DNA of 64,000 nucleotides from Candidatus Bathyarchaeia archaeon (GCA_038883655.1 JAVZLQ010000003.1:192001-256000), one strand, 5' to 3'. Positions 744 to 64,000 are shown, numbered from the stretch's first letter. Translations and numbers: made by a program. The notes: generated by a model from the letters alone, not told the origin.

Positions 744-2360
744 GTGAAAGAGATGACTGAACGTGTATTTAGAAACAGTTCTTATCTGAACGGAAAATCA
801 ACAACCGGAACAACCACACGAGTCAAAGACACAAGCCCAACAAGCGGGATGTGCCCAATATGCATCCGCGACTGTCCAATAATGTGTGAAATTGGACTTT
901 CAGCCTTCAGAGGAAGAGAAGCCCTATATCCAGAGCCAGTACAATTCGGATACAGCACAGCAGGTGCCCTCAAAGACTTTGGACTGGACTGGTCGCACTT
1001 CAACATACAAGCTGGACTTTTTGAAGCGTTAGGGATAGAGGAAAATCCTGACGTTGCACTGTTTCCAAACGCAAGCACAGAAACCGTTGTTGCTGGCATA
1101 CCCCTAAAAATACCAGTACTATGTGGCGCTTTCGGCTCAACAGACGTTGCAAGACTGAATTGGGAAGGATTAGCCATAGGCACAGCATTATCAGGCGCCA
1201 TAATAATAATCGGAGAAAACGTCTGCGGCATGGACCCAGAAGCACAATTTATAAATGGCAAAGTAACTTACTCGAAAGAATTAAAACGCAGAGTAGACTT
1301 GTTCAGGAAATTCTGGGACGGAAAATACGGAGACATAGCCGTCCAAACAAACGTTGAAGACCAACGTTTGGGAGTTGACGTCTACGCCATCTCAAAACTG
1401 GAAGTCAACATCATAGAGAGAAAGTGGGGACAAGGAGCAAAAGCAATCGGAGGCGAAGTCCGCGTAAGAGACTTGCAAAGGGCGATAATGCTAAAGAAAA
1501 GAGGATACATAGTAATTCCAGACCCAGAGGACCCAACAGTACAACAAGCATTCAAAGAAGGAGTCTTCAAATCCTTTGAAAGGCACAGCCGCGTTGGAAT
1601 ACCGAAAGAAAAGAACGTGATAGAGGATATAGAATGGCTGCGCGAGCAAGGCGCGAAACACGTGACGCTCAAAACTGGCGCTTACAGACCATCAGCCGTG
1701 GCATACACCCTAAAAATAGCCTCAGAAGCAAAAATTGATGCAGTATACTTTGACGGTGCTGGTGGCGGAACTGGAATGAGCCCTGTTCCAATGATGGACG
1801 AGATGAGCATACCAACCGTTTACCTAGAAGCGATAGTTCTAAAGTGTGCACAACTGCTGAAAAAGAAGGGCAGATACGTTCCAGACTTGATTATGGCTGG
1901 AGGTTTCATAAACGAAACGCAAATTTTCAAGGCAATAGCCATGAGTAACTTCGGAGACGGGCCATTCGTTAAGGCTGTTCTAATGGGACGCTCACCGTTA
2001 ACTGCCGTGATGAAGGCAAACTACTTCAAACAGTTGGCTGAAGAGGGCAAATTGCCGAAAGCTTTCGCAGACAGATTTGGCAACACTCCGGACAAATTCT
2101 TCATCGCAGCGCCAGAGCTGAAAGAAAAGTATGGTGAGCGCTTCAAGGAAATTCCATGGGAAGCAGTTGCGCTTTACACTTACTTGACGGATCGCATAGG
2201 CGTAGGCCTAAAACAACTCTTAGCTGGAAACAGAAAATGGAGGCTGGAGTTAATAAACAGAAATGACCTTATGAGTCTATCAGAAATTGCCGCAAAGGTA
2301 ACAGGCATACCGCTACCGCACGAGATTGAAGCAGACGCCATTGAAAGGATATTAGACTAA
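744..2360 (+). CDS. Glutamate synthase FMN-binding domain protein (archaeal stand-alone GltB2 type)
   Basis: Motifs E.KWGQGAK.IGGE and DGAGGGTGMSP, AGG and VLMGR; N-terminal Cys cluster CPICIRDCPIMC. Confidence 0.85.
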   Translation: MKEMTERVFRNSSYLNGKSTTGTTTRVKDTSPTSGMCPICIRDCPIMCEIGLSAFRGREALYPEPVQFGYSTAGALKDFGLDWSHFNIQAGLFEALGIEENPDVALFPNASTETVVAGIPLKIPVLCGAFGSTDVARLNWEGLAIGTALSGAIIIIGENVCGMDPEAQFINGKVTYSKELKRRVDLFRKFWDGKYGDIAVQTNVEDQRLGVDVYAISKLEVNIIERKWGQGAKAIGGEVRVRDLQRAIMLKKRGYIVIPDPEDPTVQQAFKEGVFKSFERHSRVGIPKEKNVIEDIEWLREQGAKHVTLKTGAYRPSAVAYTLKIASEAKIDAVYFDGAGGGTGMSPVPMMDEMSIPTVYLEAIVLKCAQLLKKKGRYVPDLIMAGGFINETQIFKAIAMSNFGDGPFVKAVLMGRSPLTAVMKANYFKQLAEEGKLPKAFADRFGNTPDKFFIAAPELKEKYGERFKEIPWEAVALYTYLTDRIGVGLKQLLAGNRKWRLELINRNDLMSLSEIAAKVTGIPLPHEIEADAIERILD

Positions 2361-2430
2361 AACTAACAACCCCCATCCTTTTTTGAAACTCCGAACAGAA
2401 CCAAAGTTTTAAAGCCATCAGCAAAGAAAA

Positions 2431-3699
2431 ATGGATGAAGTGGAGAATATGAAAGAACAGCAAACAGCACTTGACGTGGCTCTGGAACAGTTAGAAATAG
2501 CCGCTGAAAAACTGAACCTAGACCCTGGACTACACGAGATGCTGAAACATCCTAAAAGATCGCTAATTGTTTCCATCACAATAAAAATGGATGATGGAAA
2601 CATACGAACATTCAAGGGATGCCGCGTTCAACACTGGGACGCACGCGGACCATTTAAAGGCGGCATACGCTACCACCCGAACGTAACGCTGGAGGAAGTA
2701 ACAGCACTTGCCATGTGGATGACCTGGAAATGCGCAGTCGTAGACATTCCATATGGAGGCGCGAAGGGCGGGATATGTTGTAACCCGAAGGAAATGTCAA
2801 AAACTGAGCTTGAAAGACTTACAAGAAGATACACGAGCTTAATTCTTGACTATATCGGACCCTATCGTGATGTACCAGCGCCAGACGTGTATACAGACGC
2901 ACAAACAATGGCGTGGATAATGGACACATACAGCCAATTTAAAGGTTACAGCGTACCAGAATGCGTCACTGGAAAACCAATAAGCGTAGGTGGTTCTGAG
3001 GGAAGAGAAGAAGCCACTTCAAGGGGGGTCGTAATCTGCGCAAGGGAAGCGGCAAAACGTTTAGGCTTAAGATTCAAGGGCGCAACAGTTGCGGTTCAAG
3101 GCTACGGAAACGTCGGGTGGAACGCAGCGAAAATCGCACATGACATGGGATGCAAAATCATTGCGGTTAGCGATTCCGCTGGAGGAATCTATTGTCCAGA
3201 CGGTTTAAACCCACGCAAAGTTTACGAACATAAGGCAAAAACTGGCTCAGTAATTAACTATCCAAAATGTAAGAACATATCAAACGAGGAACTGCTTGAA
3301 ACAAAATGTGATATCTTAATTCCAGCAGCGCTTGAAAATCAAATAACAAAAGCCAACGCAAACAAGGTAAAAGCAAAAATAATAGTTGAAGGCGCAAATG
3401 GACCCACAACCCCAGACGCAGACAAAATACTTCAAGAAAAAGGAGTCTTCCTAATCCCAGACATATTGGCAAACGCTGGCGGCGTAACAGCAAGCTATTT
3501 CGAGTGGGTTCAAAATCTAACAAGAGAACACTGGACACTAGAAGAAGTGAACAGAAAACTCGAAAACATCATGGTGAAGGCATTCAATGACGTTTACAAC
3601 CTAGTGGAAAAAGAAAAAGAGAGCATGCGCACAGCAGCGTTAATGCTCGGCGTCGGAAGAGTAAGCGATGCGATAAAAACGTTAGGGCTATGGCCATAA
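2431..3699 (+). CDS. gdhA: Glutamate dehydrogenase (Glu/Leu/Phe/Val family)
   Basis: GPFKGGIRYHP, GGAKGG, DVPAPD, QGYGNVG, EGANGP, NAGGV..SYFEW. Confidence 0.95.
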   Translation: MDEVENMKEQQTALDVALEQLEIAAEKLNLDPGLHEMLKHPKRSLIVSITIKMDDGNIRTFKGCRVQHWDARGPFKGGIRYHPNVTLEEVTALAMWMTWKCAVVDIPYGGAKGGICCNPKEMSKTELERLTRRYTSLILDYIGPYRDVPAPDVYTDAQTMAWIMDTYSQFKGYSVPECVTGKPISVGGSEGREEATSRGVVICAREAAKRLGLRFKGATVAVQGYGNVGWNAAKIAHDMGCKIIAVSDSAGGIYCPDGLNPRKVYEHKAKTGSVINYPKCKNISNEELLETKCDILIPAALENQITKANANKVKAKIIVEGANGPTTPDADKILQEKGVFLIPDILANAGGVTASYFEWVQNLTREHWTLEEVNRKLENIMVKAFNDVYNLVEKEKESMRTAALMLGVGRVSDAIKTLGLWP

Positions 3700-3837
3700 A
3701 AGAAAACTGCTGAACTCGCCTAAACTCAATTATTTCTCCATATAACCTCCACATTTTTAACCTCACAATCTAAATTTTTAAACTACTGCTCTTATATCCT
3801 CTATGCGAATACAGTTCTAGGAAAAGGGAAGGGATAA

Positions 3838-4413
3838 ATGCAAGAAAAATCTTTGCCGAACATTAAAACCTTAGATTTCGAATTTGAAAATCTACCAGTA
3901 AAGGTCATTGCAAACAGGAATTGCCCCGAAATCAAGCTTGTTGGGCTGAATGTTGGACCTTTCGAAGAAGGAAACGTGTATGAAGCCCCGTTTTGGGTTG
4001 CAAAGGAACTGGAAAAGGCGGGAATTGTCCGCTTTCGTGAAGAAGAACTTTTGGATTCAAGAAGGATTTACAAGATTCAGTGGATGGAACGTGTCCAAAC
4101 GCCAAGCCAAATATCGAAGCTTCCAGAGAATTTTTACCCAAAACTGCGCAGGTATTTAGTGGAGCTAAAGAAGGTCTCAGCAAAATCTCCAGAAAAGATG
4201 AGGGAGTACGAAAAAAGTATGCAAGTGGTACGCGACATGATTAATGCGCGTCTAAAAAAGATTGTTGCGCTGGCAACTGCAAATTTTGGACAAACTGAGC
4301 AGATTTTGAAGAACCTCACATTCGAGGAAAGGCTAATTTATGAACGTTTGCGCAAACTTATTCACGGTTGGAAAGCCAAAATACTGGAGCATGAAGAGGG
4401 GCTGGAAGAATGA
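3838..4413 (+). CDS. gins23: GINS23 (Psf2/Psf3-like) subunit
   Basis: N-terminal B-domain (GPFEEG..PFWVAKEL), SKLPENFY, ARLKKI, NLTFEER; ATGA overlap with mcm, the known archaeal gins23-mcm arrangement. Confidence 0.8.
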   Translation: MQEKSLPNIKTLDFEFENLPVKVIANRNCPEIKLVGLNVGPFEEGNVYEAPFWVAKELEKAGIVRFREEELLDSRRIYKIQWMERVQTPSQISKLPENFYPKLRRYLVELKKVSAKSPEKMREYEKSMQVVRDMINARLKKIVALATANFGQTEQILKNLTFEERLIYERLRKLIHGWKAKILEHEEGLEE

Positions 4414-6458
4414 CTGGAGAGTTAGAAGTTATAAATCCTCAAGAGCAGTTCCAAGAATTCTTTAAAACAGAAAAGTACAGACAAAAAATTGCGCAGTTGG
4501 CTGTTGCAGGCAAAACATCACTAATAGTAGATTTTGAAGACCTCCTAATCTTCGACAACAAACTTGCAGAAAAACTACTTGAAAAACCAGACGAGTACTT
4601 ACAATATGCTAATAACGCGGCTTATTCGCAACTTGAAAGTGAAGATCCAGAATACGCCGAAAGGCTCGTAAGCAAACGGGAAACATTAACGGTCAGAATC
4701 GCTAAGCTGTTAGAAGCAACGCCGCTAAGAAAACTTGGTTCAGACCACATTGGAAAACTTGTGATGATAGAGGGCATCGTAGTACGCTCAACACCAGTAC
4801 GCCCAATGGTTATACGGGCAGCATTCAAATGCAGAAGATGTGGAGAACTATCATTCGAGGATCAAACAGGACAATTCCTAAAAGCACCATTCAAATGCAG
4901 AAACTCAGAATGCGGAGCAAAGGGTCCATTCGACTTCATTCAAGAAGAATCTGCATTCATAGACTCACAAGAACTACGCGTCCAAGAAAGACCAGAAGAC
5001 CTTCCACCAGGTCAGCTTCCAAGAACCTTGCACATTAAGCTTGTCGGGGCAGAAATAGTTGATGTTGCAAGACCTGGAGACCACGTTTCCATCGTTGGCA
5101 TAGTTCGTGTTGTTGCTCCCTCACTCCCAAGAGTTGGAAAGCTTCGCACTTTCAGACTTCATTTGGATGCAAATTCTATAGAAGTTTTAGGTAAAGAGCC
5201 TGAAACGGCGCTTCCATCACCAGAAGAAGAGGAAAAAATCTTGGAGCTGGCAAAGGATCCATGGATACATAGGAAGATAATAAATTCAATTGCACCTTCA
5301 ATCTATGGTTACGACCACATAAAAGAAGCGATAATGTACCTTCTCTTCGGCGGAGTCCCAAAAAATCTTCCAGACATAACGATAAGGGGCGAAATAAACG
5401 CCCTTCTAATAGGCGACCCAGGAACAGCCAAATCGCAACTGCTACAGTACGTGGCAAGAGTTGCACCTAGAGGATTATATACTTCTGGACGCGGAACAAC
5501 AGCAGCTGGCTTAACAGCAGCAGTAATACGCGAAAAAGGCGGAGGAATGAGTCTTGAGGCTGGTGCTTTGGTTTTGGCTGATAAGGGAATTGCGTGTATT
5601 GACGAGATGGATAAGATGCGTCCAGAAGATAGAGTTGCAATTCACGAGGCAATGGAACAGCACACGGTTTCAGTTGCGAAAGGGGGTATTGTGGCAACGC
5701 TAAACGCTAGAACAGCCATTCTTGCGGCTGCAAACCCCACTTTAGGAAGGTATGTGCCACATCGCACAGTTGCTGAAAACATCTCCTTGCCAGTTACGAT
5801 ACTCTCCAGATTTGATTTAATCTTCATTTTGAGGGATGTGCCAAACAAAGAAATGGACAGCAAAATGTCAGAGCACATCCTAGAAATGCACAGAAAAGGT
5901 TCAAGTCCCACCGAACCACCAATACCATTAGATTTGCTACGCAAATACATAAGCTACGCTAGAGGCATAAAGCCAGTTTTAACTAAAGAAGCATTACAGC
6001 GCCTCAGAGACTTCTATTTAGCAATGCGCTCAACAACAGAATCAGAAAGCTCGCCAGTCGCAATTACAGCCCGCCAACTTGAATCACTTGTGCGTATAGC
6101 AGAGGCAAGAGCCCGAGCAGCATTAAGAAAGGAAGTTCTGGCTGAAGACGCAGAAGCTGCAATTGCGATAATGAAACGTTCGCTTGAAGAGGTTGGCATA
6201 GACGTTTCTTCATTCAAGCTTGACATAGACATAATAATGACTGGAAAACCAAAAAGTGCGAGGGACAAGCTGCAAGTGATAATTTCGAAGCTTATGGAGA
6301 TGGAGAAAGAAACAGGAATCGTTGAAAGGGAAGCGCTTATAGATGAATTGGAAAGTAAATACAAGATTCCGCGAGCTGAAGCAGAACGCCTCATAGGGCA
6401 GTTGTTGCGAGAAGGAACAATATACGAGCCTAGAGAAGGTTATCTAAAGAAAACGTAG
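4410..6458 (+). CDS. mcm: MCM replicative helicase
   Basis: Zn finger CRRC..CRNSEC, Walker A GDPGTAKS, IDEMDKM, arginine finger SRFD, ITARQLE, C-terminal winged helix; no intein. Confidence 0.98.
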   Translation: MTGELEVINPQEQFQEFFKTEKYRQKIAQLAVAGKTSLIVDFEDLLIFDNKLAEKLLEKPDEYLQYANNAAYSQLESEDPEYAERLVSKRETLTVRIAKLLEATPLRKLGSDHIGKLVMIEGIVVRSTPVRPMVIRAAFKCRRCGELSFEDQTGQFLKAPFKCRNSECGAKGPFDFIQEESAFIDSQELRVQERPEDLPPGQLPRTLHIKLVGAEIVDVARPGDHVSIVGIVRVVAPSLPRVGKLRTFRLHLDANSIEVLGKEPETALPSPEEEEKILELAKDPWIHRKIINSIAPSIYGYDHIKEAIMYLLFGGVPKNLPDITIRGEINALLIGDPGTAKSQLLQYVARVAPRGLYTSGRGTTAAGLTAAVIREKGGGMSLEAGALVLADKGIACIDEMDKMRPEDRVAIHEAMEQHTVSVAKGGIVATLNARTAILAAANPTLGRYVPHRTVAENISLPVTILSRFDLIFILRDVPNKEMDSKMSEHILEMHRKGSSPTEPPIPLDLLRKYISYARGIKPVLTKEALQRLRDFYLAMRSTTESESSPVAITARQLESLVRIAEARARAALRKEVLAEDAEAAIAIMKRSLEEVGIDVSSFKLDIDIIMTGKPKSARDKLQVIISKLMEMEKETGIVEREALIDELESKYKIPRAEAERLIGQLLREGTIYEPREGYLKKT

Positions 6459-6480
6459 CTTATAATTGAAAAAGAAGGTG

Positions 6481-7041
6481 CTAGTGCGCTGCTTCAACGT
6501 TAGATTCCTTATAATACTGAGCGTTCGCGGTAAACACCGTTATGCCAATTGTGACGCCGATGTCGCTAACTGAAACATGATCTGGGTTAGTTATGTAAAC
6601 TATCATGCTCCAACCAGACCGCAAAATTAAATCATCACTGGCTTGCTGCAAAGCATAGTCTCCAGAAAGCAAGTCCACCACCTTGCCGACGAGTGTGCCG
6701 TTTTCGTGTGGCAAGATGTAGGGCAAGTCCTCGCTGATTGTCTCCAGGGTTTTGTTATAATAAACGTTACTCCATTGGCATTCTTGACCCCTAACGGATA
6801 TCTTATCAATCACAAGGTCACGCCCACCAGTGTTGATTATTAGAAACGCTGCTTCGGAAAATGTTGTTCCATTATGCCATATGTGCAATTTGAATATTTG
6901 AAGACTTTCCTCTTGAACCCGCGTTGTTGTTACGTTGATTGCGTAAAAGGTCACGACTGTTGCTAACAACACCGAGACAACCAGTATTATCAGTGTTGTA
7001 ACTACTACGCTTAATCCTCTTTTACTCTTAAACACATGCAT
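6481..7041 (-). CDS. Type IV pilin/archaellin-like protein with class III signal peptide
   Basis: N-terminus KSKRG|LSVVVTTLIILVVSVLLA (prepilin peptidase site plus hydrophobic helix); INTGGRD..IDKI.VRG. Confidence 0.8.
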   Translation of the reverse strand: MHVFKSKRGLSVVVTTLIILVVSVLLATVVTFYAINVTTTRVQEESLQIFKLHIWHNGTTFSEAAFLIINTGGRDLVIDKISVRGQECQWSNVYYNKTLETISEDLPYILPHENGTLVGKVVDLLSGDYALQQASDDLILRSGWSMIVYITNPDHVSVSDIGVTIGITVFTANAQYYKESNVEAAH

Positions 7042-7227
7042 ACGCTATCCCAACTGAAATTTTTCTGGAAAATTAATGGAAAAGAAAAGTAAGTTTCTTT
7101 GTACGTAACAAAAGCCAACGCAACCTAAAGATTATTATCCGAATATTTGATTAAAACTTAAAACTTCACAGAAATATCTAAAATTAAACTTTGCATAAAC
7201 TGCACAAACGCTTCGGAAAGGACGAAA

Positions 7228-8316
7228 ATGGTAATAATGGTTGTCGTTGGTACACGTCCAGAAATAATAAAGATGGCCCCGCTAATCAGAGAGCTGCAAA
7301 AACAGCGTATGCCTTTGACTTTTGTCCACTGCGGTCAACACTACGACTATAACATGTCGCAGCAATTCATTGAAGAGCTTAAGCTCCCAACGCCAGACTA
7401 TTGTTATAAGGTGAAGGCGTACTCTCAAGGAGTGCAAACCGCAAGAATAATGACTCACATGGAAAAACTAATGAAACAAACCTTGCCATCGCTGGTTCTC
7501 ATTGAAGGCGACACAAACGGAGTTCTCGCAACGGCACTGGCATCGGTTAAACTCGGCATACCCGTAGGACACGTAGAAGCTGGACTGCGAAGCTTTGATT
7601 TGAGAATGCCAGAAGAACATAATAGACGACTAACGGACCACATATCAACATATCTTTTCGCGCCAACAAAAGTTGCAGAATCCAACTTAAAGAGCGAGAA
7701 CGTTTGGGGCAAGATCTATGTCACAGGCAACACCGTCATAGACGCTGCAATTCAGCACTTACCAATAGCCGAAAGCAAATCAAAAATTCTAGGGAAAATA
7801 CGCTTCAAGGAATTCGCCTTAGTAACAGCCCACAGGGCAGAAAACGTGGACAACATTGAAGTTCTAAAGAATTTTGTAGACGCCTTCTCAGAAGCGCCGA
7901 TACCAATCGTTTATCCCATGCACCCTCGCACACGAAAGAGACTGCGAAAAAACGGGATTTACTCAAAGATTAAAAAGTCCGAAAACGTTCAGGTGTTACC
8001 GCCGCTTGGATATCTAGACTTTCTTGTTTTAATGAAAAATTGCAAACTAACAATAACAGATTCTGGAGGAATTCAAGAAGAGGCAACAGCGCCTTGCATA
8101 AGAAAACATGTCCTCGTCATACGCCTTTCAACTGAGCGTCCGGAAGCCGTGAAAGCAGGCTTTGCAGAGGTTATCGGCATAAAAAAGAAAGAAATAGTCG
8201 ATGGAATAACGAGAACACTTGAACAGCCAAAACCACTACCGAAACACTCGCCGTACGGAGATGGCAAAGCAGCTGAAAGAATTGCCGAGATAATTAGGGA
8301 GGAAATCGCCCTTTAA
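7228..8316 (+). CDS. wecB: UDP-N-acetylglucosamine 2-epimerase (non-hydrolysing)
   Basis: GTRPEIIK, GQHYD, HVEAGLRS, PEEHNR, HRAEN, TDSGGIQEE, TERPE, PYGDG. Confidence 0.95.
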   Translation: MVIMVVVGTRPEIIKMAPLIRELQKQRMPLTFVHCGQHYDYNMSQQFIEELKLPTPDYCYKVKAYSQGVQTARIMTHMEKLMKQTLPSLVLIEGDTNGVLATALASVKLGIPVGHVEAGLRSFDLRMPEEHNRRLTDHISTYLFAPTKVAESNLKSENVWGKIYVTGNTVIDAAIQHLPIAESKSKILGKIRFKEFALVTAHRAENVDNIEVLKNFVDAFSEAPIPIVYPMHPRTRKRLRKNGIYSKIKKSENVQVLPPLGYLDFLVLMKNCKLTITDSGGIQEEATAPCIRKHVLVIRLSTERPEAVKAGFAEVIGIKKKEIVDGITRTLEQPKPLPKHSPYGDGKAAERIAEIIREEIAL

Positions 8317-9094: not shown

Positions 9095-9258
9095 TTTCCG
9101 CTACCCTCTTTCAAAAGCATCCTATACTTGAGGTATTTATCATCTGGAGAGAACTTTGGCGGATGTGGCACACGAACCTTTCCACCACAATATGGACAAG
9201 TCTTCTTTTTCAATGTGTAGGCGCCACACCTTTCACACTTTCTTAAAAGCCAGACCAT
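9091..9258 (-). CDS. nop10: H/ACA RNP protein Nop10 (55 aa, absent from ORF track)
   Basis: Manual translation: MVWLLRKCERCGAYTLKKKTCPYCGGKVRVPHPPKFSPDDKYLKYR..., with Zn ribbon and HPPKFSPDDKY signature; start overlaps the aIF2a stop. Confidence 0.95.
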   Translation of the reverse strand: MVWLLRKCERCGAYTLKKKTCPYCGGKVRVPHPPKFSPDDKYLKYRMLLKEGSGK

Positions 9259-10061
9259 CACTTCTCCCTCTTAAAAACTCCTTGCCCACCAGCCTTAACA
9301 ACGTTCGAAATAACATTCTCGGCAACTCTCTGAAGCGTGCTTTCCGCATGCCTATAATTTTCCGCCATAACCTCAATGCAGTATCTTGGCGCAGCAACAA
9401 CATAAAACCGCATTTTCGCATCACGCACTTTTTCAGCCTTCTTAGCCTCCAAAAAAGCCTCTTTAATAACCTTAACACCATTCGGCTTCATACATCGAAG
9501 CTCAACTATCCCCTTCACCTTAACCATCGGCACGGGCATCCTTTCCCTCGCAATCTCAACAACAGCCTCAGCGATTTTTTCGGGCACTCCAAGCTTAAGC
9601 AAAAAGCCAGCACCGTCCCTTGCAGCCTTCTCAAAACTTTCGTATAAGCCGTACTCCTTCTCCATCAGCGCCCCCGCTTTCTCATAAACCTCTTCAATCG
9701 ACAAGCCAACCTTTTCCGCCACATTTCTAAGCAAGCCCTCAGCTTTCCGTTCACGCTTCCAAGACAAAATCTTCTCGATTTTCTCTCTTTTCGTAACCCT
9801 CCTCAAGGAAAGGTCTATATGCCCTTTTTCAGCATCAACCCGCAAAACCTTCAAAACAACCTTCTGGTTTTCACGAACAAAATCCCGAATGTTCCGAATC
9901 CAAGCAGAAGAAATTTCAGAAATATGCAGCAGCCCCTTCTTATTATATTCATCAAGCCTCACATAAGCACCATAATCAGTAACAGACTCAACAGTAGCTA
10001 TAACCAAATCCCCAACTTCAGGCCACTCTGGCTTCTTAAAGGACATAATGGCCGCCATCAC
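9258..10061 (-). CDS. eif2a: Translation initiation factor 2 subunit alpha
   Basis: S1 domain PEVGDLV..GAYVRLDEY..LHISEI, GHIDLSLRRV, AAPRY. Confidence 0.97.
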   Translation of the reverse strand: MMAAIMSFKKPEWPEVGDLVIATVESVTDYGAYVRLDEYNKKGLLHISEISSAWIRNIRDFVRENQKVVLKVLRVDAEKGHIDLSLRRVTKREKIEKILSWKRERKAEGLLRNVAEKVGLSIEEVYEKAGALMEKEYGLYESFEKAARDGAGFLLKLGVPEKIAEAVVEIARERMPVPMVKVKGIVELRCMKPNGVKVIKEAFLEAKKAEKVRDAKMRFYVVAAPRYCIEVMAENYRHAESTLQRVAENVISNVVKAGGQGVFKREK

Positions 10062-58636: not shown

Positions 58637-59485
58637 TTGGAGATGAGAAGTGTGAAAGAAAATTTCAAAGTTGCACTTGCCCAAATAAACTGCTATCGTG
58701 CAGATAAAGAGAAAAACATGAGAAAAATGGAAAAGGTAATAACAAAAGTTGCAAAAGAGAAAGTAGACCTCATAATTTTTCCAGAGCTTTCGCTAACTGG
58801 CTACGTGGTTCGAGATGAAATATACAACTTAGCGGAGACAATACCCGGACCATCAACAGAGGCCATGGGAAAAATAGCAAAAAAGACGGGGATATACGTG
58901 GTCTTCGGCATGCCAGAGCTAAGTGAAAAAGCGAAGGCAACCATTTACAATTCAGCAGTGCTTGTAGGTCCGGAAGGATTTGTTGGCAAATATCGCAAGA
59001 TGCATCTTCCAACCCACAGCGTATTTGAGGAAAAAAGATATTTCAGGCCAGGCTATGAGGCTGTAGCGCTTGCCACAAAACTTGGGAAAATTGGGCTAAT
59101 AATTTGCTATGACATTTTCTTTCCAGAATTATGTAGACTTGCACGCCTCAAGGGTGCACAGCTCATAGTTTGCATTTCAGCTTCACCAGCGGTTAGGAAA
59201 GCCTTTTTTGAAACGTTGACAGTTGCCAGAGCGATGGAAAACGCTGTGTTTTTAGCATATGTAAATCTGGTCGGCATAGAAGATGGACTGCAATTTTGGG
59301 GAGGAAGTAGACTCGTTGGACCACATGGGAAAGTGCTCATCCAAGCAAGGTATGACGAAGAAGACCTTGTGATATGTGATGTCAATTACAGTGATATCAA
59401 GCCAGTGGAAGTGTTTGTGCCAACGCTCAAAGATTTACGCCCAGAACTTTTTGGTGAACTGATGGAAAGCGCTAAGCGCTTGTAA
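58637..59485 (+). CDS. Carbon-nitrogen hydrolase (nitrilase superfamily)
   Basis: Glu-Lys-Cys triad: FPEL, YRK.HLP, ICYD; ARA.EN, FWGGS. Confidence 0.92.
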   Translation: MEMRSVKENFKVALAQINCYRADKEKNMRKMEKVITKVAKEKVDLIIFPELSLTGYVVRDEIYNLAETIPGPSTEAMGKIAKKTGIYVVFGMPELSEKAKATIYNSAVLVGPEGFVGKYRKMHLPTHSVFEEKRYFRPGYEAVALATKLGKIGLIICYDIFFPELCRLARLKGAQLIVCISASPAVRKAFFETLTVARAMENAVFLAYVNLVGIEDGLQFWGGSRLVGPHGKVLIQARYDEEDLVICDVNYSDIKPVEVFVPTLKDLRPELFGELMESAKRL

Positions 59486-59488
59486 CTG

Positions 59489-60670
59489 TCATGCTCGTTT
59501 AATCTTTCTAATCGCGTTCTCGATTCTGTCCATAGCCTCATCTAATTGCTCATACGCAGCAGCGTATGAAATTCTTATATATCCCTCGCCGTAGCGTCCA
59601 AAAGAAGATCCTGGAACAGTTAGTACACGCGCTTGTCTTGCAAGATATTCCGCAAACTGTTCTGAAGACATATCAAAACTTTTGATGCTGGGGAAAACGT
59701 AAAAGGCGCCTCTTGGGAGTGCACAACTAAATCCCTCCATCTCATTAAGCCTTCGATAAACCATTTGTCTTCTCCTGTCAAATTCCTTCACCATGTCTCT
59801 TACAAAATCTTGCGGTCCTTCCAGCGCAGCTAACGCGACATACTGAGCTATACTATTGATACATGCAATTGTATGCTGGTGTATAAGCCACAATGGTAAA
59901 ATGAGTTCTTTAGGGCCGTATACGAAACCAATCCGCAGTCCTGTCATCGCATAAGTCTTGGAAAAAGAGTTAACAACTAACGTGCGTTCACGCATTCCAG
60001 GGAAAGTCGCAAGGCAATAATGTTTAGTTCCATCATAGAGTATTTTTTCATAAACCTCGTCAGAAATCACAATGAGGTCACGCTCAACGGCAATCTTCGC
60101 CAACTTCGCTGCATCGTCAAAGGAAAGAGTTGCCCCTGTAGGGTTGTTAGGATAGTTCAAAATGATCACACGTGACCTATCAGTGATAAGCGACATCACA
60201 TCATCAGCAGACGGTTTGAATCCATTTTCCTCCAATAAAGGAATAGAAACCGGAACGCCATCAACTAAACGAACGCAAGGCTCGTAACACACAAAACCTG
60301 GATCTGGAATTAAAACCTCATCGCCTGGATTTACAAAACCGAAAAGCGCCAGAAAGATAGCCTCAATCCCGCCCGAAGTTATTAATATTTCTGAGTTGGG
60401 GTCATAGTTAAGCCCATATTCACGAAAGGCCTTTTTGGCTAATGCCTCACGCAACTCTGGAATACCGTTGGTGGGAGTGTAATGTGTTTTTCCCTCTTTT
60501 GCAGCCTTCAAACCCATTTCTATCGCATGTTGCGGAGGAGAAAAATCTGGTTCTCCTAAGCTAAGATTGATAGCATCTGGCATTTCTTGGGTTAAAGCGA
60601 AAAATCGGCGAATTCCAGACGGCTTTACGTTTTTTAGGCGCTTTGCGGGCTTAGATCGAAAAGTCAACAA
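59489..60670 (-). CDS. Class I PLP aminotransferase (aspartate aminotransferase type)
   Basis: GEPDF, PNNPTG, SDEVY, SFSKTYAMTGLRIG, GAFY, RISY. Confidence 0.93.
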   Translation of the reverse strand: MLTFRSKPAKRLKNVKPSGIRRFFALTQEMPDAINLSLGEPDFSPPQHAIEMGLKAAKEGKTHYTPTNGIPELREALAKKAFREYGLNYDPNSEILITSGGIEAIFLALFGFVNPGDEVLIPDPGFVCYEPCVRLVDGVPVSIPLLEENGFKPSADDVMSLITDRSRVIILNYPNNPTGATLSFDDAAKLAKIAVERDLIVISDEVYEKILYDGTKHYCLATFPGMRERTLVVNSFSKTYAMTGLRIGFVYGPKELILPLWLIHQHTIACINSIAQYVALAALEGPQDFVRDMVKEFDRRRQMVYRRLNEMEGFSCALPRGAFYVFPSIKSFDMSSEQFAEYLARQARVLTVPGSSFGRYGEGYIRISYAAAYEQLDEAMDRIENAIRKIKRA

Positions 60671-60809
60671 TCCCCCTCAATATGCACTGGTTCTTAGAGG
60701 ATAAAATATTTGCGTTGCAAAGTTTACAAAACCTATGTTTCAAGCAAGGTTTAAAACGAACCTTGTATACAAATCTGTATTCATACAAGAGGGCAGTGGT
60801 TGAAAGAGT

Positions 60810-61277
60810 TTGAAACTAAAAGAGAACGTTCACTTATGGTTAGTGCGCTCTTTAAGTGACCCCATAGTCGAAATACTCTACAAAAATAGCCATTTAACGA
60901 AAACGCAGCTTGAAACGTTACTTATAGACATTTTAGCTGAAAATATATCTGGAAAAATCTTAAATTACGATGAAAAAGCCAGATTAAGGTTAACAAAGGC
61001 AAAAATAAGCCGAGGGGCATTTAATAGGACTTTAAAACAAGCCAAAGGAAACGTCATAAGATCCATATACACCATACTACTGTTAGGATACTTAGGCGTG
61101 TTTGAAAGCACAACTCTTGACCCCTACATCGAAATAGCAAACAGATTAAAAGAATATGTAGAGGCACATAAAAACATGGCAAACACGAACGAAAGACTGA
61201 AGATCCTAAAAATTATTAGAGAAGAACTTGAAACAAGTTTAAAAAAGCTATCAAATACCTCGCCAAGTGAAATGTGA
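60810..61277 (+). CDS. Uncharacterised HTH-like protein (Tfx/sigma-r4-like pattern)
   Basis: SHLTKTQLETL..(helix)..ISRGAFNRTLKQAKGNV followed by a hydrophobic helix and helical tail; family not firmly recognised. Confidence 0.55.
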   Translation: MKLKENVHLWLVRSLSDPIVEILYKNSHLTKTQLETLLIDILAENISGKILNYDEKARLRLTKAKISRGAFNRTLKQAKGNVIRSIYTILLLGYLGVFESTTLDPYIEIANRLKEYVEAHKNMANTNERLKILKIIREELETSLKKLSNTSPSEM

Positions 61278-61534
61278 CATCACAAGTCACGTGGAATTCC
61301 TACAAGCTCTTTCTTCCGAACTCTTCGACGGCGAAAATTGACCTTAAATTAGAAAAAGATTCAAAAGTAGGCTTTATCGCAAACTCTATGGAATAGCAGT
61401 TATTTGCACGCTTTTGTGATGTGTGATGTCATGATGGGACCATGTTACGGTAAAGGTAAGCATAATCTTTAAATCCTTTGTATGCAAACTGTGATGTGTG
61501 ATGTCTATGGATAAATCACAAATGAATCATGTAG

Positions 61535-62263
61535 GTGTTTGATTTGGAAGCTTGGGTGTTTGCTTTAATCTTAGCAGCTTTAACGGTCATCGTTTGTTAT
61601 GTTTATTATAGGCAGCTTCAAAAGGTACGCAATGAATATGAAAGCGCAAAAGCTGTTGTTAGCGATATAGTTTTAAGTTTTAATAGGCAGCTGAAGCAGG
61701 AATCGGAAAGGATGAATTTAATTGCATATAAAGTTGATGCTGCAGCCTCGAAGGGTGACAGCGCAAAGAAGGCCGTTGAAGATGTTTGTAAGAAAATTGA
61801 ATCTTTAGGGACTAGAGTTGGCACGTTAATAAGCGAAAAAGAAGTTGTAACAAGAAGAATGGATGAAATAGCTAAAGCATTGCAAGAAAATATAAACATG
61901 CAAAGGAATTTAGCTGCGCGTCTTGCTATAGTTGAGGAGCACGTAAAGCATTCCACGGTTGTTTCAGATGCCAAAATTGAAGCGGTAATCCCCATAAGAA
62001 GGGAAAAGGCATTATCTCCACTTACTGAAACTGAGGTATCGGTTTTGGACATGTTAGCGTCTGAGGGCCCGAAAACAGCACCTGAAATAAAGGAGAGAAT
62101 TAAGCTTAGTAGAGAGCATACTGCACGTTTAATGAAGAAACTCTACGAGGAAGGTTATTTGGATAGGGATACAAGTAGAATTCCATTTAGGTATAGCGTA
62201 AAAGAAGAGATGCGAAGGCTGCTGAAGCGGACGGAAAACGAGCAAGCCCAGCCGCAATCATAA
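61535..62263 (+). CDS. Membrane-anchored coiled-coil protein with C-terminal winged helix (MarR-like)
   Basis: N-terminal TM (AWVFALILAALTVIVCYVYY), ~110 aa predicted coiled coil, then LTETEVSVLDML...KTAPEIKERIKLSREHTARLMKKLYEEGYLDR...PFRYSV. Confidence 0.8.
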   Translation: MFDLEAWVFALILAALTVIVCYVYYRQLQKVRNEYESAKAVVSDIVLSFNRQLKQESERMNLIAYKVDAAASKGDSAKKAVEDVCKKIESLGTRVGTLISEKEVVTRRMDEIAKALQENINMQRNLAARLAIVEEHVKHSTVVSDAKIEAVIPIRREKALSPLTETEVSVLDMLASEGPKTAPEIKERIKLSREHTARLMKKLYEEGYLDRDTSRIPFRYSVKEEMRRLLKRTENEQAQPQS

Positions 62264-62265
62264 AT

Positions 62266-62694
62266 TTAAGGTGTTTGCCTTTCAATTATTGCCTTTGGAT
62301 AGCTAGTTGTTAACTTGTACTTTAGGGTTCTTGAAGCCCCAGTCCTTAAGAGCAAGCCCTTACTCGACATTCTCGAAAGGTAAGTGGCCACCGTGCTAAG
62401 TCCTATAGGTTCCTTAAATTCTTGCTCGTAAGCCAGTTGAACATCATGTGATGTAAACCACACTAATGGAAAGTGCTTCTGGACAACAATACGTACTTTA
62501 TCGTATTTAGAAAATTCATTTTCCAAAACTTCCTTGTTTGATTCGTTGGCTCTGCCGGCTGGCACACCGCCCAAGAGTTCCACGAGATCTAAGAGACGAA
62601 GAGCGTTTTCCCTAGTAATTTGACCTTCAAACGCTATTGTGTAGCGGTTACCGTCTTCATCGAAGAGTTCGACTCGTATCTTTCGGGCGGGCAT
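62266..62694 (-). CDS. Uncharacterised two-domain protein with C-terminal winged helix
   Basis: N-terminal beta-beta-alpha module (KIRVELFDEDGNRYTIAFEG); C-terminal FTSHDV..YE..F.EPIGLSTVATYLSRM..KG.L.R..Y; start MPARK at 62694 inferred. Confidence 0.7.
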   Translation of the reverse strand: MPARKIRVELFDEDGNRYTIAFEGQITRENALRLLDLVELLGGVPAGRANESNKEVLENEFSKYDKVRIVVQKHFPLVWFTSHDVQLAYEQEFKEPIGLSTVATYLSRMSSKGLLLRTGASRTLKYKLTTSYPKAIIERQTP

Positions 62695-62890
62695 TAATGT
62701 CGTACACCCAAGTGTATTCACAACTTTGCAGTTAACAAGTTATAGGTATTATGGTGAAAAAGTTGCGCAGAAAAAAGCGCAAATATTATTTAAAAACTGG
62801 AAAAGAGGAAGAAATTCAATTTTTCAATGATTACAAGGTTCACAATCGCTTAATTTTTTCGCTTCTAATAGAAAAAGAATAGAACATAAT

Positions 62891-63305
62891 TCTCCAGTAG
62901 AAAGGCAGGGGTGCCATGTTCACAATAAAGACGCATGAAAAAGGCAATTTTTTTTACAATAAACGAAAAAAGAAGCATTTTCTCTTAAATTTCACACGAG
63001 CATCACAATTTGTGAAAATTTTAATTAAGTTAAAGTTACATAAAAATTTGAGAGAATAATAAAGTAAGGGTAAGAAAGGGCGTTATAATTGATTGAATTT
63101 TGTCTGGCGCACCCCTGTATTTCCATTGGAAAATGTGGTTTGGTGTTGGATATTTTAGCAAAAGCAAATTACTGGTAAATATAATTTTTTTAACTATAAC
63201 TTTTATAATTGCACTGTCATCCTTTACCTTCCAGAGTATATTTCTTGTTAGCAAGAAATCAGCATTAATCCGTAGAATAAAAAGTTCCAGAGGAAATTAT
63301 GGGGT
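62891..63305. other. Replication origin oriC (ORB elements flanking an AT-rich unwinding element)
   Basis: ORB1 62891-62912 TCTCCAGTAGAAAGGCAGGGGT (+), ORB2 63111-63132 TTTCCAATGGAAATACAGGGGT (-), ORB3 63284-63305 GTTCCAGAGGAAATTATGGGGT (+); ORB1 and ORB2 are inverted around ~200 bp of AT-rich DNA; upstream of cdc6. Confidence 0.92.
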
Positions 63306-63361
63306 GTGACTTGAAAGTTTGTTAAACTTTGAATTTAGTTTTCTGTAGTGAGATACTTATT

Positions 63362-63383
63362 ACTCCAGAGGGAGAGTAGGCAT
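63362..63383 (+). promoter_or_regulatory. Degenerate (mini-)ORB in the cdc6 upstream region
   Basis: ACTCCAGAGGGAGAGTAGG about 30-50 bp upstream of the cdc6 ATG; GGAGGAGG Shine-Dalgarno-like sequence near 63399-63406. Confidence 0.5.
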
Positions 63384-63413
63384 ATCCTTTGAAATTTCGG
63401 AGGAGGCTTCGTA

Positions 63414-64000
63414 ATGAGCGACACAAAAATCCTTGATGAGTTATTCTCGAACTTCATTGGAAATGCAAAAATATTCAGGGATAGGAGCGTGTTGCGACAT
63501 GATTACTTGCCAAATAAGTTGCCGCATCGTGAGGAACAAATTAGGCTACTTGGTGAAAAAGTGGCTCCCGCTTTAAAAAAGGAGCGATGTTCAAACGTTT
63601 TCATTTATGGTAAAACGGGGACAGGGAAAACTGCCGTTGCGAAATATGTGTTAAGCCACCTCGAAATTAAGGCGAAAGAGTACGGTGCACCTGTAAAGTT
63701 CTGCTATGTAAATTGTCGAATGGCTGGTTCTGGGTACCGCGTTTTTGCAAATCTATGCCACAGCATTGGGACGTACGTGCCCTTCACGGGGTTATCTGTT
63801 GGCGAGGTCTTTGATAGATTTCGAGCGGCGCTGGATATGTTGCAGTTGATATTTATAGTGGTTTTGGATGAAATAGACGCTTTGATAAAGACGCGTGGGG
63901 ACGGCCTCCTATACGAACTAACTAGGATAAATGAAACTTTGCATCAAAGTAAGTTGTCTTTAATTGGTATCTCAAACGACCTGCGGCTTAAGGAATTTTT
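63414..64000 (+). CDS. cdc6: Orc1/Cdc6 replication initiator, 3'-partial (absent from ORF track)
   Basis: Manual translation: MSDTKILDELF..IFRDRSVLRHDYLPNKLPHREEQI..IYGKTGTGKT..YVNCR..VPFTGLS..IVVLDEIDAL..LYELTR..IGISNDL; runs off the window end. Confidence 0.97.
   Translation, partial: MSDTKILDELFSNFIGNAKIFRDRSVLRHDYLPNKLPHREEQIRLLGEKVAPALKKERCSNVFIYGKTGTGKTAVAKYVLSHLEIKAKEYGAPVKFCYVNCRMAGSGYRVFANLCHSIGTYVPFTGLSVGEVFDRFRAALDMLQLIFIVVLDEIDALIKTRGDGLLYELTRINETLHQSKLSLIGISNDLRLKEF

Follow-up and report, generated by a model that had tools for sequence, protein, structure and literature searches.

Conserved TGTGAY heptads and a predicted membrane-anchored winged-helix protein beside the ORB/cdc6 origin of Bathyarchaeia: a candidate for origin tethering

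Introduction

Could an archaeal replication origin be held at the membrane by a small protein encoded beside it? The question is raised by a 64,000-nucleotide stretch of a Bathyarchaeia genome, which we call the window (G000:C3:192001-256000, G000 being our label for the source genome, 1.42 Mb in 19 contigs). In it three uncharacterised genes, P1, P2 and P3, lie immediately left of an origin with origin recognition box (ORB) elements and the initiator gene cdc6. A preliminary description of the window had proposed that all three gene products bind DNA, that they recognize a local TGTGATG repeat, and that one of them links the origin region to the membrane independently of ParA. Chromosome placement and segregation in archaea outside the Sulfolobus models are largely unknown, and a literature search found no paper on origin-flanking factors in Bathyarchaeia. 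From the analysis reported here we tentatively favour the reading that P2 dimers bind an array of TGTGAY heptads, act as repressors of the P2 promoter and thereby keep DNA that lies 1.4-1.6 kb from ORB1 at the membrane; local autoregulation ranked nearly as likely as the tether.

The three open reading frames (ORFs) of the preliminary description were all present in our ORF list: P1 (60810-61277, + strand), with 155 amino acids (aa) from a TTG start; P2 (61535-62263, + strand), with 242 aa; and P3 (62266-62694, − strand), with 142 aa. Relatives of the window proteins carry the labels Bathyarchaeia or Bathyarchaeales. Related loci are denoted by L numbers and other genomes by further G numbers. 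Three sets of loci were compared: an order-level set, from the 20 of 35 related genomes with a P2 match whose contigs were long enough for 17 kb; a class-level set of 20 loci from families outside and inside the order, picked for long contigs; and a phylum-level set of 20 P1 loci outside the class.

Results

A heptad array surrounds the P2 promoter

The preliminary description had reported a motif concentration over about 3.6 kb. Nine of the 13 TGTGATG copies in the window do lie there, within 59375-63007 (binomial P 3.5e-9, for a region chosen post hoc), but the actual repeat unit is a 7-bp heptad, TGTGAY, and the true feature is a dense, operator-like array of about 250 bp (61273-61520) around the B recognition element (BRE), TATA box and start of P2. 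The array begins with a palindrome, TGTGACATCACA (61273-61284), whose TGA is the P1 stop codon and which an imperfect half-site, AGTCAC, extends to 61291. It continues with an upstream heptad doublet, TGTGATGTGTGATGTCA (61415-61431, + strand), placed before the P2 TATA; a putative BRE/TATA of P2, GCATAATCTTTAAAT (61461-61475, + strand); a downstream heptad doublet, TGTGATGTGTGATG (61490-61503, + strand); and an inverted heptad, AATCACA (61514-61520, − strand), in the P2 leader just before the P2 start. The BRE/TATA assignment follows from general knowledge of archaeal promoters, and in orthologous intergenic regions the element appears as a conserved block, CATAA(T/A)C(T/C)TTAAAT. As transcription is expected to start about 25 bp past the TATA box, the downstream doublet would cover the P2 start site. 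The P2 leaders of relatives hold 2-3 inverted heptad copies at 10-11 bp spacing.

This layout is rigid. In 19 of the 21 loci the first doublet starts 37-53 bp before the P2 TATA and the second 21-24 bp after it; the wrong TATA was assigned in the remaining two, yet the order of the elements is unchanged. TGTGA/TCACA occurs 23.9 times per kb in the P1-P2 spacer, 7.9 times in the origin spacer and 1.76 times in the remaining 560 kb of the loci. The array is laid out as iteron centromeres are, with short repeats, both direct and inverted, on either side of the promoter of the candidate binder's own gene, and this arrangement is kept in 19 of 21 loci.

When the genome G000 was searched for two composite patterns, the doublet pattern TGTGAYNTGTGAY had three copies and the palindrome TGTGAYRTCACA one, all of them inside 59368-63016, where composition would lead one to expect 0.8 doublets and 0.4 palindromes in the genome. 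The densest 500-bp bin for TGTGAY, that at 61201, holds seven copies, as against at most four in any other bin. In five further genomes (0.9-2.5 Mb) all strict palindromes and doublets lie at the orthologous locus, bar two copies that fall within genes no more than about 2.5 kb away, CN hydrolase in one case and NadE in the other; a reversed control pattern gave 0-2 matches per strand per genome. Both composite patterns are restricted to the locus and its immediate neighbours in all six genomes searched, and the repeat is conserved at orthologous loci, as the preliminary description had anticipated. The window's doublet at 59368-59380 lies inside the CN-hydrolase gene, where by eye it encodes V-I-C-D-V; it was set aside as a functional site, being probably a coding coincidence, and it recurs at the matching coding position in 5 of 20 relatives.

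P2 combines a membrane helix, a coiled coil and a MarR/TrmB winged helix

The reading of P2 as a transmembrane segment, a coiled coil and a winged helix was borne out in all three parts. There is a single hydrophobic helix, at residues 6-24 (KD19 2.39), preceded by a 5-residue acidic N-terminal tail, MFDLE, and followed by a basic segment, YRQLQKVRNEY. Because this C-terminal flank is basic, the positive-inside rule predicts that the remainder of P2 is cytoplasmic; and as only about 5 residues would lie outside the membrane, P2 appears to have no sensor domain. The PDB matches of residues ~30-146 are all coiled-coil proteins, among them chemoreceptor hairpins, tropomyosin and designed coils. 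Residues 163-222 matched Pfam MarR (PF01047) at 32.5 bits, with a cut-off of 24.6, and TrmB (PF01978) at 29.2 bits, with a cut-off of 25.6, the profile match spanning positions 1-51 of 59; in NCBIfam there were sub-threshold matches to Lrs14 and Sta1. With scores above the curated cut-offs, P2 belongs to the MarR/TrmB winged-helix superfamily.

Among 21 P2 orthologues the winged helix is almost invariant (SREHTARLMKKLYE) and the coil is variable. Nineteen of the 20 order-level orthologues retain the membrane helix, beginning within the first residues; among more distant homologues 29 of 35 have it. P2 has 4148 relatives, and among those listed that have a name many are MarR family regulators. 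A paralogous origin of P2 and P3 was considered and rejected (hhalign probability 3.6%).

The module is conserved across the class and beyond

All 20 order-level loci have the gene order PolD large subunit-GGGPS-Elf1-NadE-CN hydrolase-(aminotransferase)-P1-P2-P3-origin-cdc6. Within the class, 116 of 151 genomes gave a P2 match. Every one of the 20 class-level loci has P1 linked to P2, at times with 2.5-7 kb inserted between them; P3 is present in 11 of these loci, and cdc6 lies within the 20-kb locus in 14. For Bathyarchaeia in total, P1-P2 linkage holds in 40 of 40 loci and cdc6 is nearby in 34. The six class-level loci without cdc6 all belong to one family, f24; in L049 the block is inverted and still stands beside cdc6. 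ORB-like elements were present beside cdc6 in 20 of the 22 cdc6-bearing class- and phylum-level loci and in none of the 18 without cdc6; three further single ORB-like matches were located elsewhere.

Outside the class, the P1 profile matched 83 of 201 phylum genomes, with some families always matching and others never (for example, 0/17 in each of two families). Fifteen of the 20 phylum-level P1 loci have a P2-like neighbour, 12 a P3-like neighbour and 19 at least one of the two. The cdc6 gene is in eight of these loci, five of which read PolD-GGGPS-(Elf1)-P1-P2-P3-cdc6. In three genomes where cdc6 is not adjacent, its orthologue was located 14.4 kb (G201), 11.3 kb (G187) or 21.5 kb (G260) from P1. 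The sources of identical outside-class proteins give them the labels Candidatus Caldarchaeum, Calditenuaceae or Thaumarchaeota/Nitrososphaerota metagenome-assembled genomes, which confirms the Thaumarchaeota-type relatives that the preliminary description had mentioned. Its proposal that homologues of all three genes should be syntenic with cdc6 and the origin held across Bathyarchaeia. The outcome that it had named as damaging, homologues unlinked to origins, was encountered in part, in the six f24 loci and in 12 of the 20 loci outside the class, against linkage in 34 of 40 Bathyarchaeia loci. As part of what we consider the best explanation, P1, P2, P3, the TGTGAY sites and oriC/cdc6 are one old module of Bathyarchaeia and Nitrososphaeria-type lineages.

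The palindrome follows P1. Of the 20 order-level loci, 13 have a strict copy at the P1 3' end or adjoining it, as do most class-level loci, and the copy keeps that place even with 2.5-7 kb between P1 and P2. In some loci a 778-aa gene, HypF-like by eye, is inserted convergently after P1; there the palindrome remains at the P1 stop, between two gene ends, and the P2 promoter is divergent from the inserted gene and has no doublets. L037 (reverse-complemented, ~1100-5950) carries the palindrome TGTGAYRTCACA five times. Four copies, about 1.1 kb apart and with 40-110 bp of repeated flank, occupy a 3.3-kb region beyond P1 that has almost no ORF of at least 55 aa and in which no Rfam family reached the gathering score; the fifth, on the other side of P1 and upstream of it, is inverted. 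Because the palindrome is kept between convergent gene ends, and because of this multi-copy stretch in L037, the sites appear to be more than a promoter operator.

The insertions between P1 and P2 differ by lineage (L033, L038, L040-L042; L037, L044, L066-L069). One type is a gene of ~775 aa with an acylphosphatase-like N-terminus, HypF-like by eye, and another is a gene with an XRE-type helix-turn-helix (HTH), which in two loci by eye includes CBS-like sequence. In L038, L042 and L047 the match to the PolD large subunit falls into two pieces, with a 50-200 bp gap or a frame change between them. In the f24 locus L039 the P1-P2 spacer (9160-9916) is 760 bp long, has a GC content of 21-28% as against 50-60% in its flanks, and contains 15 copies of TGTGA/TCACA; 3 kb further downstream is a gene that by eye resembles the PolD small subunit. 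This spacer could be another kind of origin.

Much of the above would also be accounted for by a local transcription circuit, an explanation that we regard as distinctly possible. P2, perhaps together with P1 and P3, would in that case only tune P2, P3 and possibly cdc6, with the membrane helix serving regulation by limiting or releasing the factor, and the adjacency to the origin would be inherited. What argues for such a circuit is that in 19 of 21 loci the doublets stand at set distances on either side of the BRE/TATA, one of them over the expected start; this fits the outcome, autoregulation only, that the preliminary description had named as going against its own proposal, and it does count against the tether. 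The MarR and TrmB relatives are transcription regulators, the entire PolD-to-cdc6 neighbourhood is syntenic, and f24 and several outside lineages hold P1-P2 away from any ORB. However, a circuit whose composite sites are confined to the locus has no output beyond P2 and a neighbour, yet it is conserved class-wide and beyond, and P2 has no extracytoplasmic sensing domain. The palindrome kept between convergent gene ends, where there is no promoter, and the five copies around P1 in L037, four of them in the ORF-poor stretch, are likewise not expected of a circuit of this kind.

TGTGAY enrichment follows the membrane-helix form of P2

If P2 tethers the array, it is P2 that should read the heptads. 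TGTGAY enrichment was calculated for the outside-class loci as the density within +/-700 bp around P1 against the rest of the locus. Where P2 has the membrane helix, all 10 loci were enriched, by 3-9 fold; enrichment was weak (1.5-3.5 fold) in the five loci whose P2 has no helix, and not seen in any of the five loci without P2. Since enrichment tracks the membrane-helix form of P2, it points to P2, rather than P1 or P3, as the putative heptad reader, and the association of repeat and P2 that had been proposed at the outset holds for the membrane-anchored form in all 10 loci.

The main competitor for this role is P1. As a sigma-region-4-like HTH factor whose gene ends in its own palindrome, P1 could read TGTGAY, with P2 as its regulated target or membrane-bound antagonist; we consider this unlikely. 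The palindrome is tied to the P1 stop codon in nearly every Bathyarchaeia locus, even with P2 kilobases off, P1 pairs as a hub with P2 or with P3 depending on lineage, and P1 is the best conserved of the three proteins (mean column identity of 71%, as against 66% for P3 and 59% for P2). Three distant P1 relatives, from one cluster, gave sub-threshold matches to Sigma70_r4, HTH_10 and DUF134 (E 0.009-0.08). Against this explanation, TGTGAY enrichment was seen in 0 of the 5 loci that have P1 without P2, and the PDB and fold searches gave P1 no DNA-binding fold.

P1 is an unannotated family and P3 a winged-helix protein

P1 is all-helical, with seven helices in its AF2 model (pLDDT 75.7). Pfam and NCBIfam profile scans of P1 gave no match, Pfam gave no HTH-family match in any of 21 order-level P1 proteins, profile searches of the PDB from 21-row and 58-row alignments found nothing meaningful, and Foldseek with the model against the PDB and viral libraries found nothing at E <= 0.001. 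A TFIIB/cyclin fold and a DnaB N-domain appeared only as weak Foldseek rows (probability <= 0.3) and were rejected. The conserved motifs LTKTQLETLLID and SRGAFNRTLKQA resemble by eye sigma region 4 or a LuxR-type HTH and suggest that P1 may be an HTH protein; this is a lead and no more, and an ESM Atlas value of 0.79 is likewise a lead only. The claim that each of the three genes encodes a DNA-binding fold is accordingly upheld for P2, by Pfam, and for P3, by Foldseek, and not for P1, which had no Pfam, NCBIfam, PDB or fold match.

P1 has 3603 relatives, with 300 clusters (50% identity) at E <= 0.001; those listed are named hypothetical or bear an evidently spurious automatic label, and none has a Pfam domain. 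Regardless of the role of the array, P1 is a sizeable unannotated new family. One fused form, P0253 (362 aa, the P1 N-terminal part with an unrelated membrane/coiled-coil tail), is a single sequence and a possible gene-calling artefact and was not used. Complex prediction for P1 with the cytoplasmic part of P2 scored 0.00, was run without controls and is informative neither way. An element, TACAAAA-N3-GTA, stands 10-40 bp before the P1 start in the window (60740-60810) and in L057-L068, from Bathyarchaeia to Caldarchaeum-type lineages. It was rejected as an operator and taken instead as a TATA box from which P1 would be transcribed with a short leader or none.

P3 is read towards P2, its convergent neighbour, and away from cdc6, which lies on the far side of the origin. 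Its start was set at the ATG at 62694 by orthologue alignment, most rows beginning with MPARK or MPAKK; the mechanical ORF would extend to a GTG at 62721. In the AF2 model (pLDDT 74) an N-terminal unit of two strands and a helix is joined by a disordered linker to a C-terminal winged helix, which Foldseek matched to the DNA-binding domains of Fur, RosR, MarR, PadR and AspA (E about 3e-3). Of the small two-domain winged-helix protein described earlier, the winged helix at the C-terminus stands, and it is one winged helix, not two. In most relatives printed, a TGTGA box follows the putative P3 TATA (by eye), which speaks for a local circuit.

The origin and its own boxes

The origin spacer between P3 and cdc6 (62722-63413) is 692 bp long. 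It holds ORB1 (62890-62913, + strand), ORB2 (63110-63133), which is inverted and was identified by eye, and ORB3 (63284-63306, + strand). Two ORB matches (62893-62914 and 63286-63307) were found, where 0.30 were expected, and the GC content of the spacer drops to 0.30-0.31, with an AT-rich stretch between ORB2 and ORB3. The cdc6/orc1 gene starts at 63414 on the + strand and continues beyond the window end at 64000 (416 aa in the genome). Opposed ORB elements around an AT-rich stretch, adjoining cdc6/orc1, are the marks of an origin, and the earlier identification of an ORB origin was sound. The distance from the array to ORB1 is 1.4-1.6 kb. Near-identical DNA to the stretch is present in hot-spring metagenome runs; two runs labelled metatranscriptomic were flagged as probably DNA, and their coverage extends over the origin spacer too. 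No Rfam family, tRNA included, reached the gathering score anywhere in the 64-kb window.

The origin has boxes related to the heptads: TTCACA at 62839-62844, 62919-62924 and 62991-62996, ATCACA at 63002-63007, and TGTGA at 63011-63015. In most of 10 orthologous origins printed, boxes are kept before ORB1 and 6-7 bp past the ORB1 G-run, and a third conserved element is a TTCACA-N5-TCACA(-N3-TGTGA) block, which in the window reads TTCACA-N5-ATCACA-N3-TGTGA. The owner of the TTCACA boxes may be P3, Cdc6 or another factor.

ParA-type and HerA-like neighbours

The earlier claim that no ParA is encoded in the window was upheld, as tblastn with a ParA query found none at E <= 1e-5; tblastn found no ParB there either, and neither the ORF list nor Pfam gave an ATPase gene in 60810-63413. 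The ParA-like and ParB-like tblastn matches in G000 are weak and lie on contigs C2 and C12, and none of P1-P3 has a ParB_N domain (Pfam). In L063-L065, three loci of one genus of Calditenuaceae, a ParA ATPase gene (AAA_31 E about 1e-50) lies directly upstream of P1 and co-directional with it. The two genes are about 20 bp apart in one locus and about 50 bp apart in another, and in the third an ORF of 155 aa intervenes; P3 is convergent, and two of the three loci have ParB_N genes close by. These loci have neither P2 nor heptads. ParA adjacency was seen in these 3 of 140 loci scanned and is absent from the other 137 and from the window. It is a single evolutionary event and the module's only association with a gene of known function class. 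The earlier description of the system as ParA-independent is right for the window and is not universal, one lineage having ParA directly upstream of P1.

In 9 of the 20 order-level loci (L016, at 5554-8137, L017, L019, L020, L021, L028, L029, L030 and L032), two extra genes lie between P2 and P3 on the P3 strand. The first, of 330-350 aa, has no family match; the second encodes a 515-545-aa ATPase of the HerA/FtsK superfamily (DUF87 E 3e-11), which scored far under the CedD and HerA NCBIfam cut-offs. No homologue of this HerA-like ATPase or of its 330-350-aa partner was found in G000.

One could take these neighbours to mean that the module assists a partition machine of the ParA type, with P1 and P3 as centromere-binding adaptors and the ATPase, in most lineages, encoded elsewhere or replaced by a motor such as the HerA-like ATPase. 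ParA placed directly upstream of P1 in 3 of 3 loci of the genus, with ParB_N beside two, and the HerA-like pair in 9 of 20 order-level loci speak for this; but the ParA adjacency amounts to one event in one genus among the 140 loci and the window, the loci that bear it lack P2 and heptads, G000 lacks the HerA-like pair, and its only ParA-like and ParB-like matches are the weak ones on other contigs. We consider an accessory role of this kind very unlikely.

Discussion

Tether plus autoregulation

The reading that we favour joins a tether to autoregulation. P2 would be inserted in the membrane by its single N-terminal helix, with about 5 residues outside and with the coil and winged helix in the cytoplasm. 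Dimers formed through the coiled coil would occupy the TGTGAY heptads, that is, both doublets, the inverted leader copies and the palindrome at the P1 stop, and P2 on the downstream doublet would block its own promoter. Because P2, the proposed binder, sits in the membrane, the bound DNA would be held there. The array would then be a centromere-like site doubling as an operator, as in plasmid partition loci, and may help to place the origin, to segregate it or to control initiation. P1, as an HTH-like protein, and P3, with its winged helix, would be co-inherited partners, with the TTCACA boxes of the origin and the box at the P3 promoter as candidate targets.

A number of points weigh against this reading. 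Binding of the sites by P2, or by any of the three proteins, is a prediction from sequence. The geometry of the sites is exactly that of a plain autorepressor, to which the tether adds an assumption, and since membrane-bound transcription factors exist, anchoring alone implies no structural role. The membrane helix is missing from 6 of 35 distant P2 homologues, the count of co-occurrence between helix and heptads rests on about ten families that are not independent, and the boxes in the origin are TTCACA, not RTCACA, and may belong to another factor. Linkage to the origin also has its exceptions. Six f24 loci keep P1, the palindrome and P2 and have no ORB, P3 or cdc6 within 10 kb; in a complete f24 genome, G158, no Cdc6 homologue was closer than a paralogue of 32% identity at a distance of 343 kb, and f24 P2 promoters have no doublets. 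Outside the class, 12 of 20 loci have no cdc6 or ORB in the locus (about 10 kb). Finally, the PolD large subunit, GGGPS, Elf1 and NadE neighbourhood is syntenic as well, and because the whole stretch from PolD to cdc6 is kept together, linkage to cdc6 may reflect inherited gene order and not selection.

Comparison with known systems

RicO, RocS and RacA of Firmicutes are HTH proteins with a coiled coil that attach to the membrane and are established as bridges between it and origin-proximal DNA, to sites in which they bind; RicO has nine such sites, spread over about 700 kb (bioRxiv 10.64898/2026.03.06.710092). P2 resembles these proteins in its components, its DNA-binding domain being small and joined to a coiled coil and a predicted membrane anchor. 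It differs from them in showing no sequence homology (NCBIfam RacA gave E 0.04 and 13.9 bits, against a cut-off of 165, over the coiled coil only), in its reversed domain order, in having an integral membrane helix where they use an amphipathic helix or a DivIVA partner, and in being archaeal and having a MarR-type winged helix. Whereas the RicO sites are widely spread, the candidate sites of P2 are one 250-bp array on its own promoter.

In the autoregulators of plasmid partition (omega/parS of pSM19035, TubR/tubC and ParR/parC), direct and inverted short iterons likewise lie over the binder's own promoter and serve both repression and segrosome assembly. TubR is a winged-helix protein and ParR a ribbon-helix-helix protein. 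Omega is also a ribbon-helix-helix protein, and the parS of pSM19035 consists of 7-bp WATCACW heptads that overlap three promoters (PMC9499535). These heptads share their 7-bp period and their core with the AATCACA/TGTGATG units here, a likeness in sequence that is probably coincidence. Unlike these systems, P2 is predicted to be membrane-anchored, is chromosomal and has no motor ATPase beside it in G000.

Several families of regulators and partition proteins share single features with the module. The C-terminal domain of P2 scores above the Pfam MarR and TrmB cut-offs, yet among MarR, TrmB and Lrs14 proteins the likeness is confined to the winged-helix core of ~50 residues, and the place of the usual flanking dimerisation helices is taken in P2 by a membrane helix at the N-terminus and ~110 residues of coiled coil. 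ToxR/CadC-type proteins are single-pass membrane proteins with a cytoplasmic winged-helix DNA-binding domain, as is predicted for P2; theirs, however, is N-terminal and accompanied by a periplasmic sensor, whereas in P2 the DNA-binding domain is C-terminal and about 5 residues lie outside. The Sulfolobus-type SegAB system is an archaeal chromosomal system with a site-specific DNA-binding protein, the ribbon-helix-helix protein SegB; in the window no SegA/ParA gene stands beside the module, and P1-P3 matched no ribbon-helix-helix family (Pfam). The module differs from ParABS in that P1-P3 have no ParB_N domain and adjacent ParA occurs only in L063-L065.

There is a wider form of the tether proposal, of which we are more doubtful: an envelope-anchoring device without bacterial homologue, inherited by Bathyarchaeia and their Nitrososphaeria-type relatives, in which P2 dimers on the heptad array would pin the origin, and P1 and P3 would couple it to initiation or to a motor, this motor being ParA in Calditenuaceae and the HerA-like ATPase in some Bathyarchaeales.

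Significance

The module is kept from Bathyarchaeia to Aigarchaeota- and Thaumarchaeota-labelled lineages, and the locus offers a testable candidate, with a small protein predicted to be membrane-anchored and DNA-binding, a 250-bp target at one locus per genome, and two partners. Even if the array were a mere autoregulatory operator, the P2 promoter would be among the most rigidly conserved operator layouts for studying archaeal repression. If the tether proposal is true in its wider form, the device would be the first origin-membrane tether described in archaea, and would open a route to chromosome positioning and segregation in archaea that bear PolD and lack SegAB.

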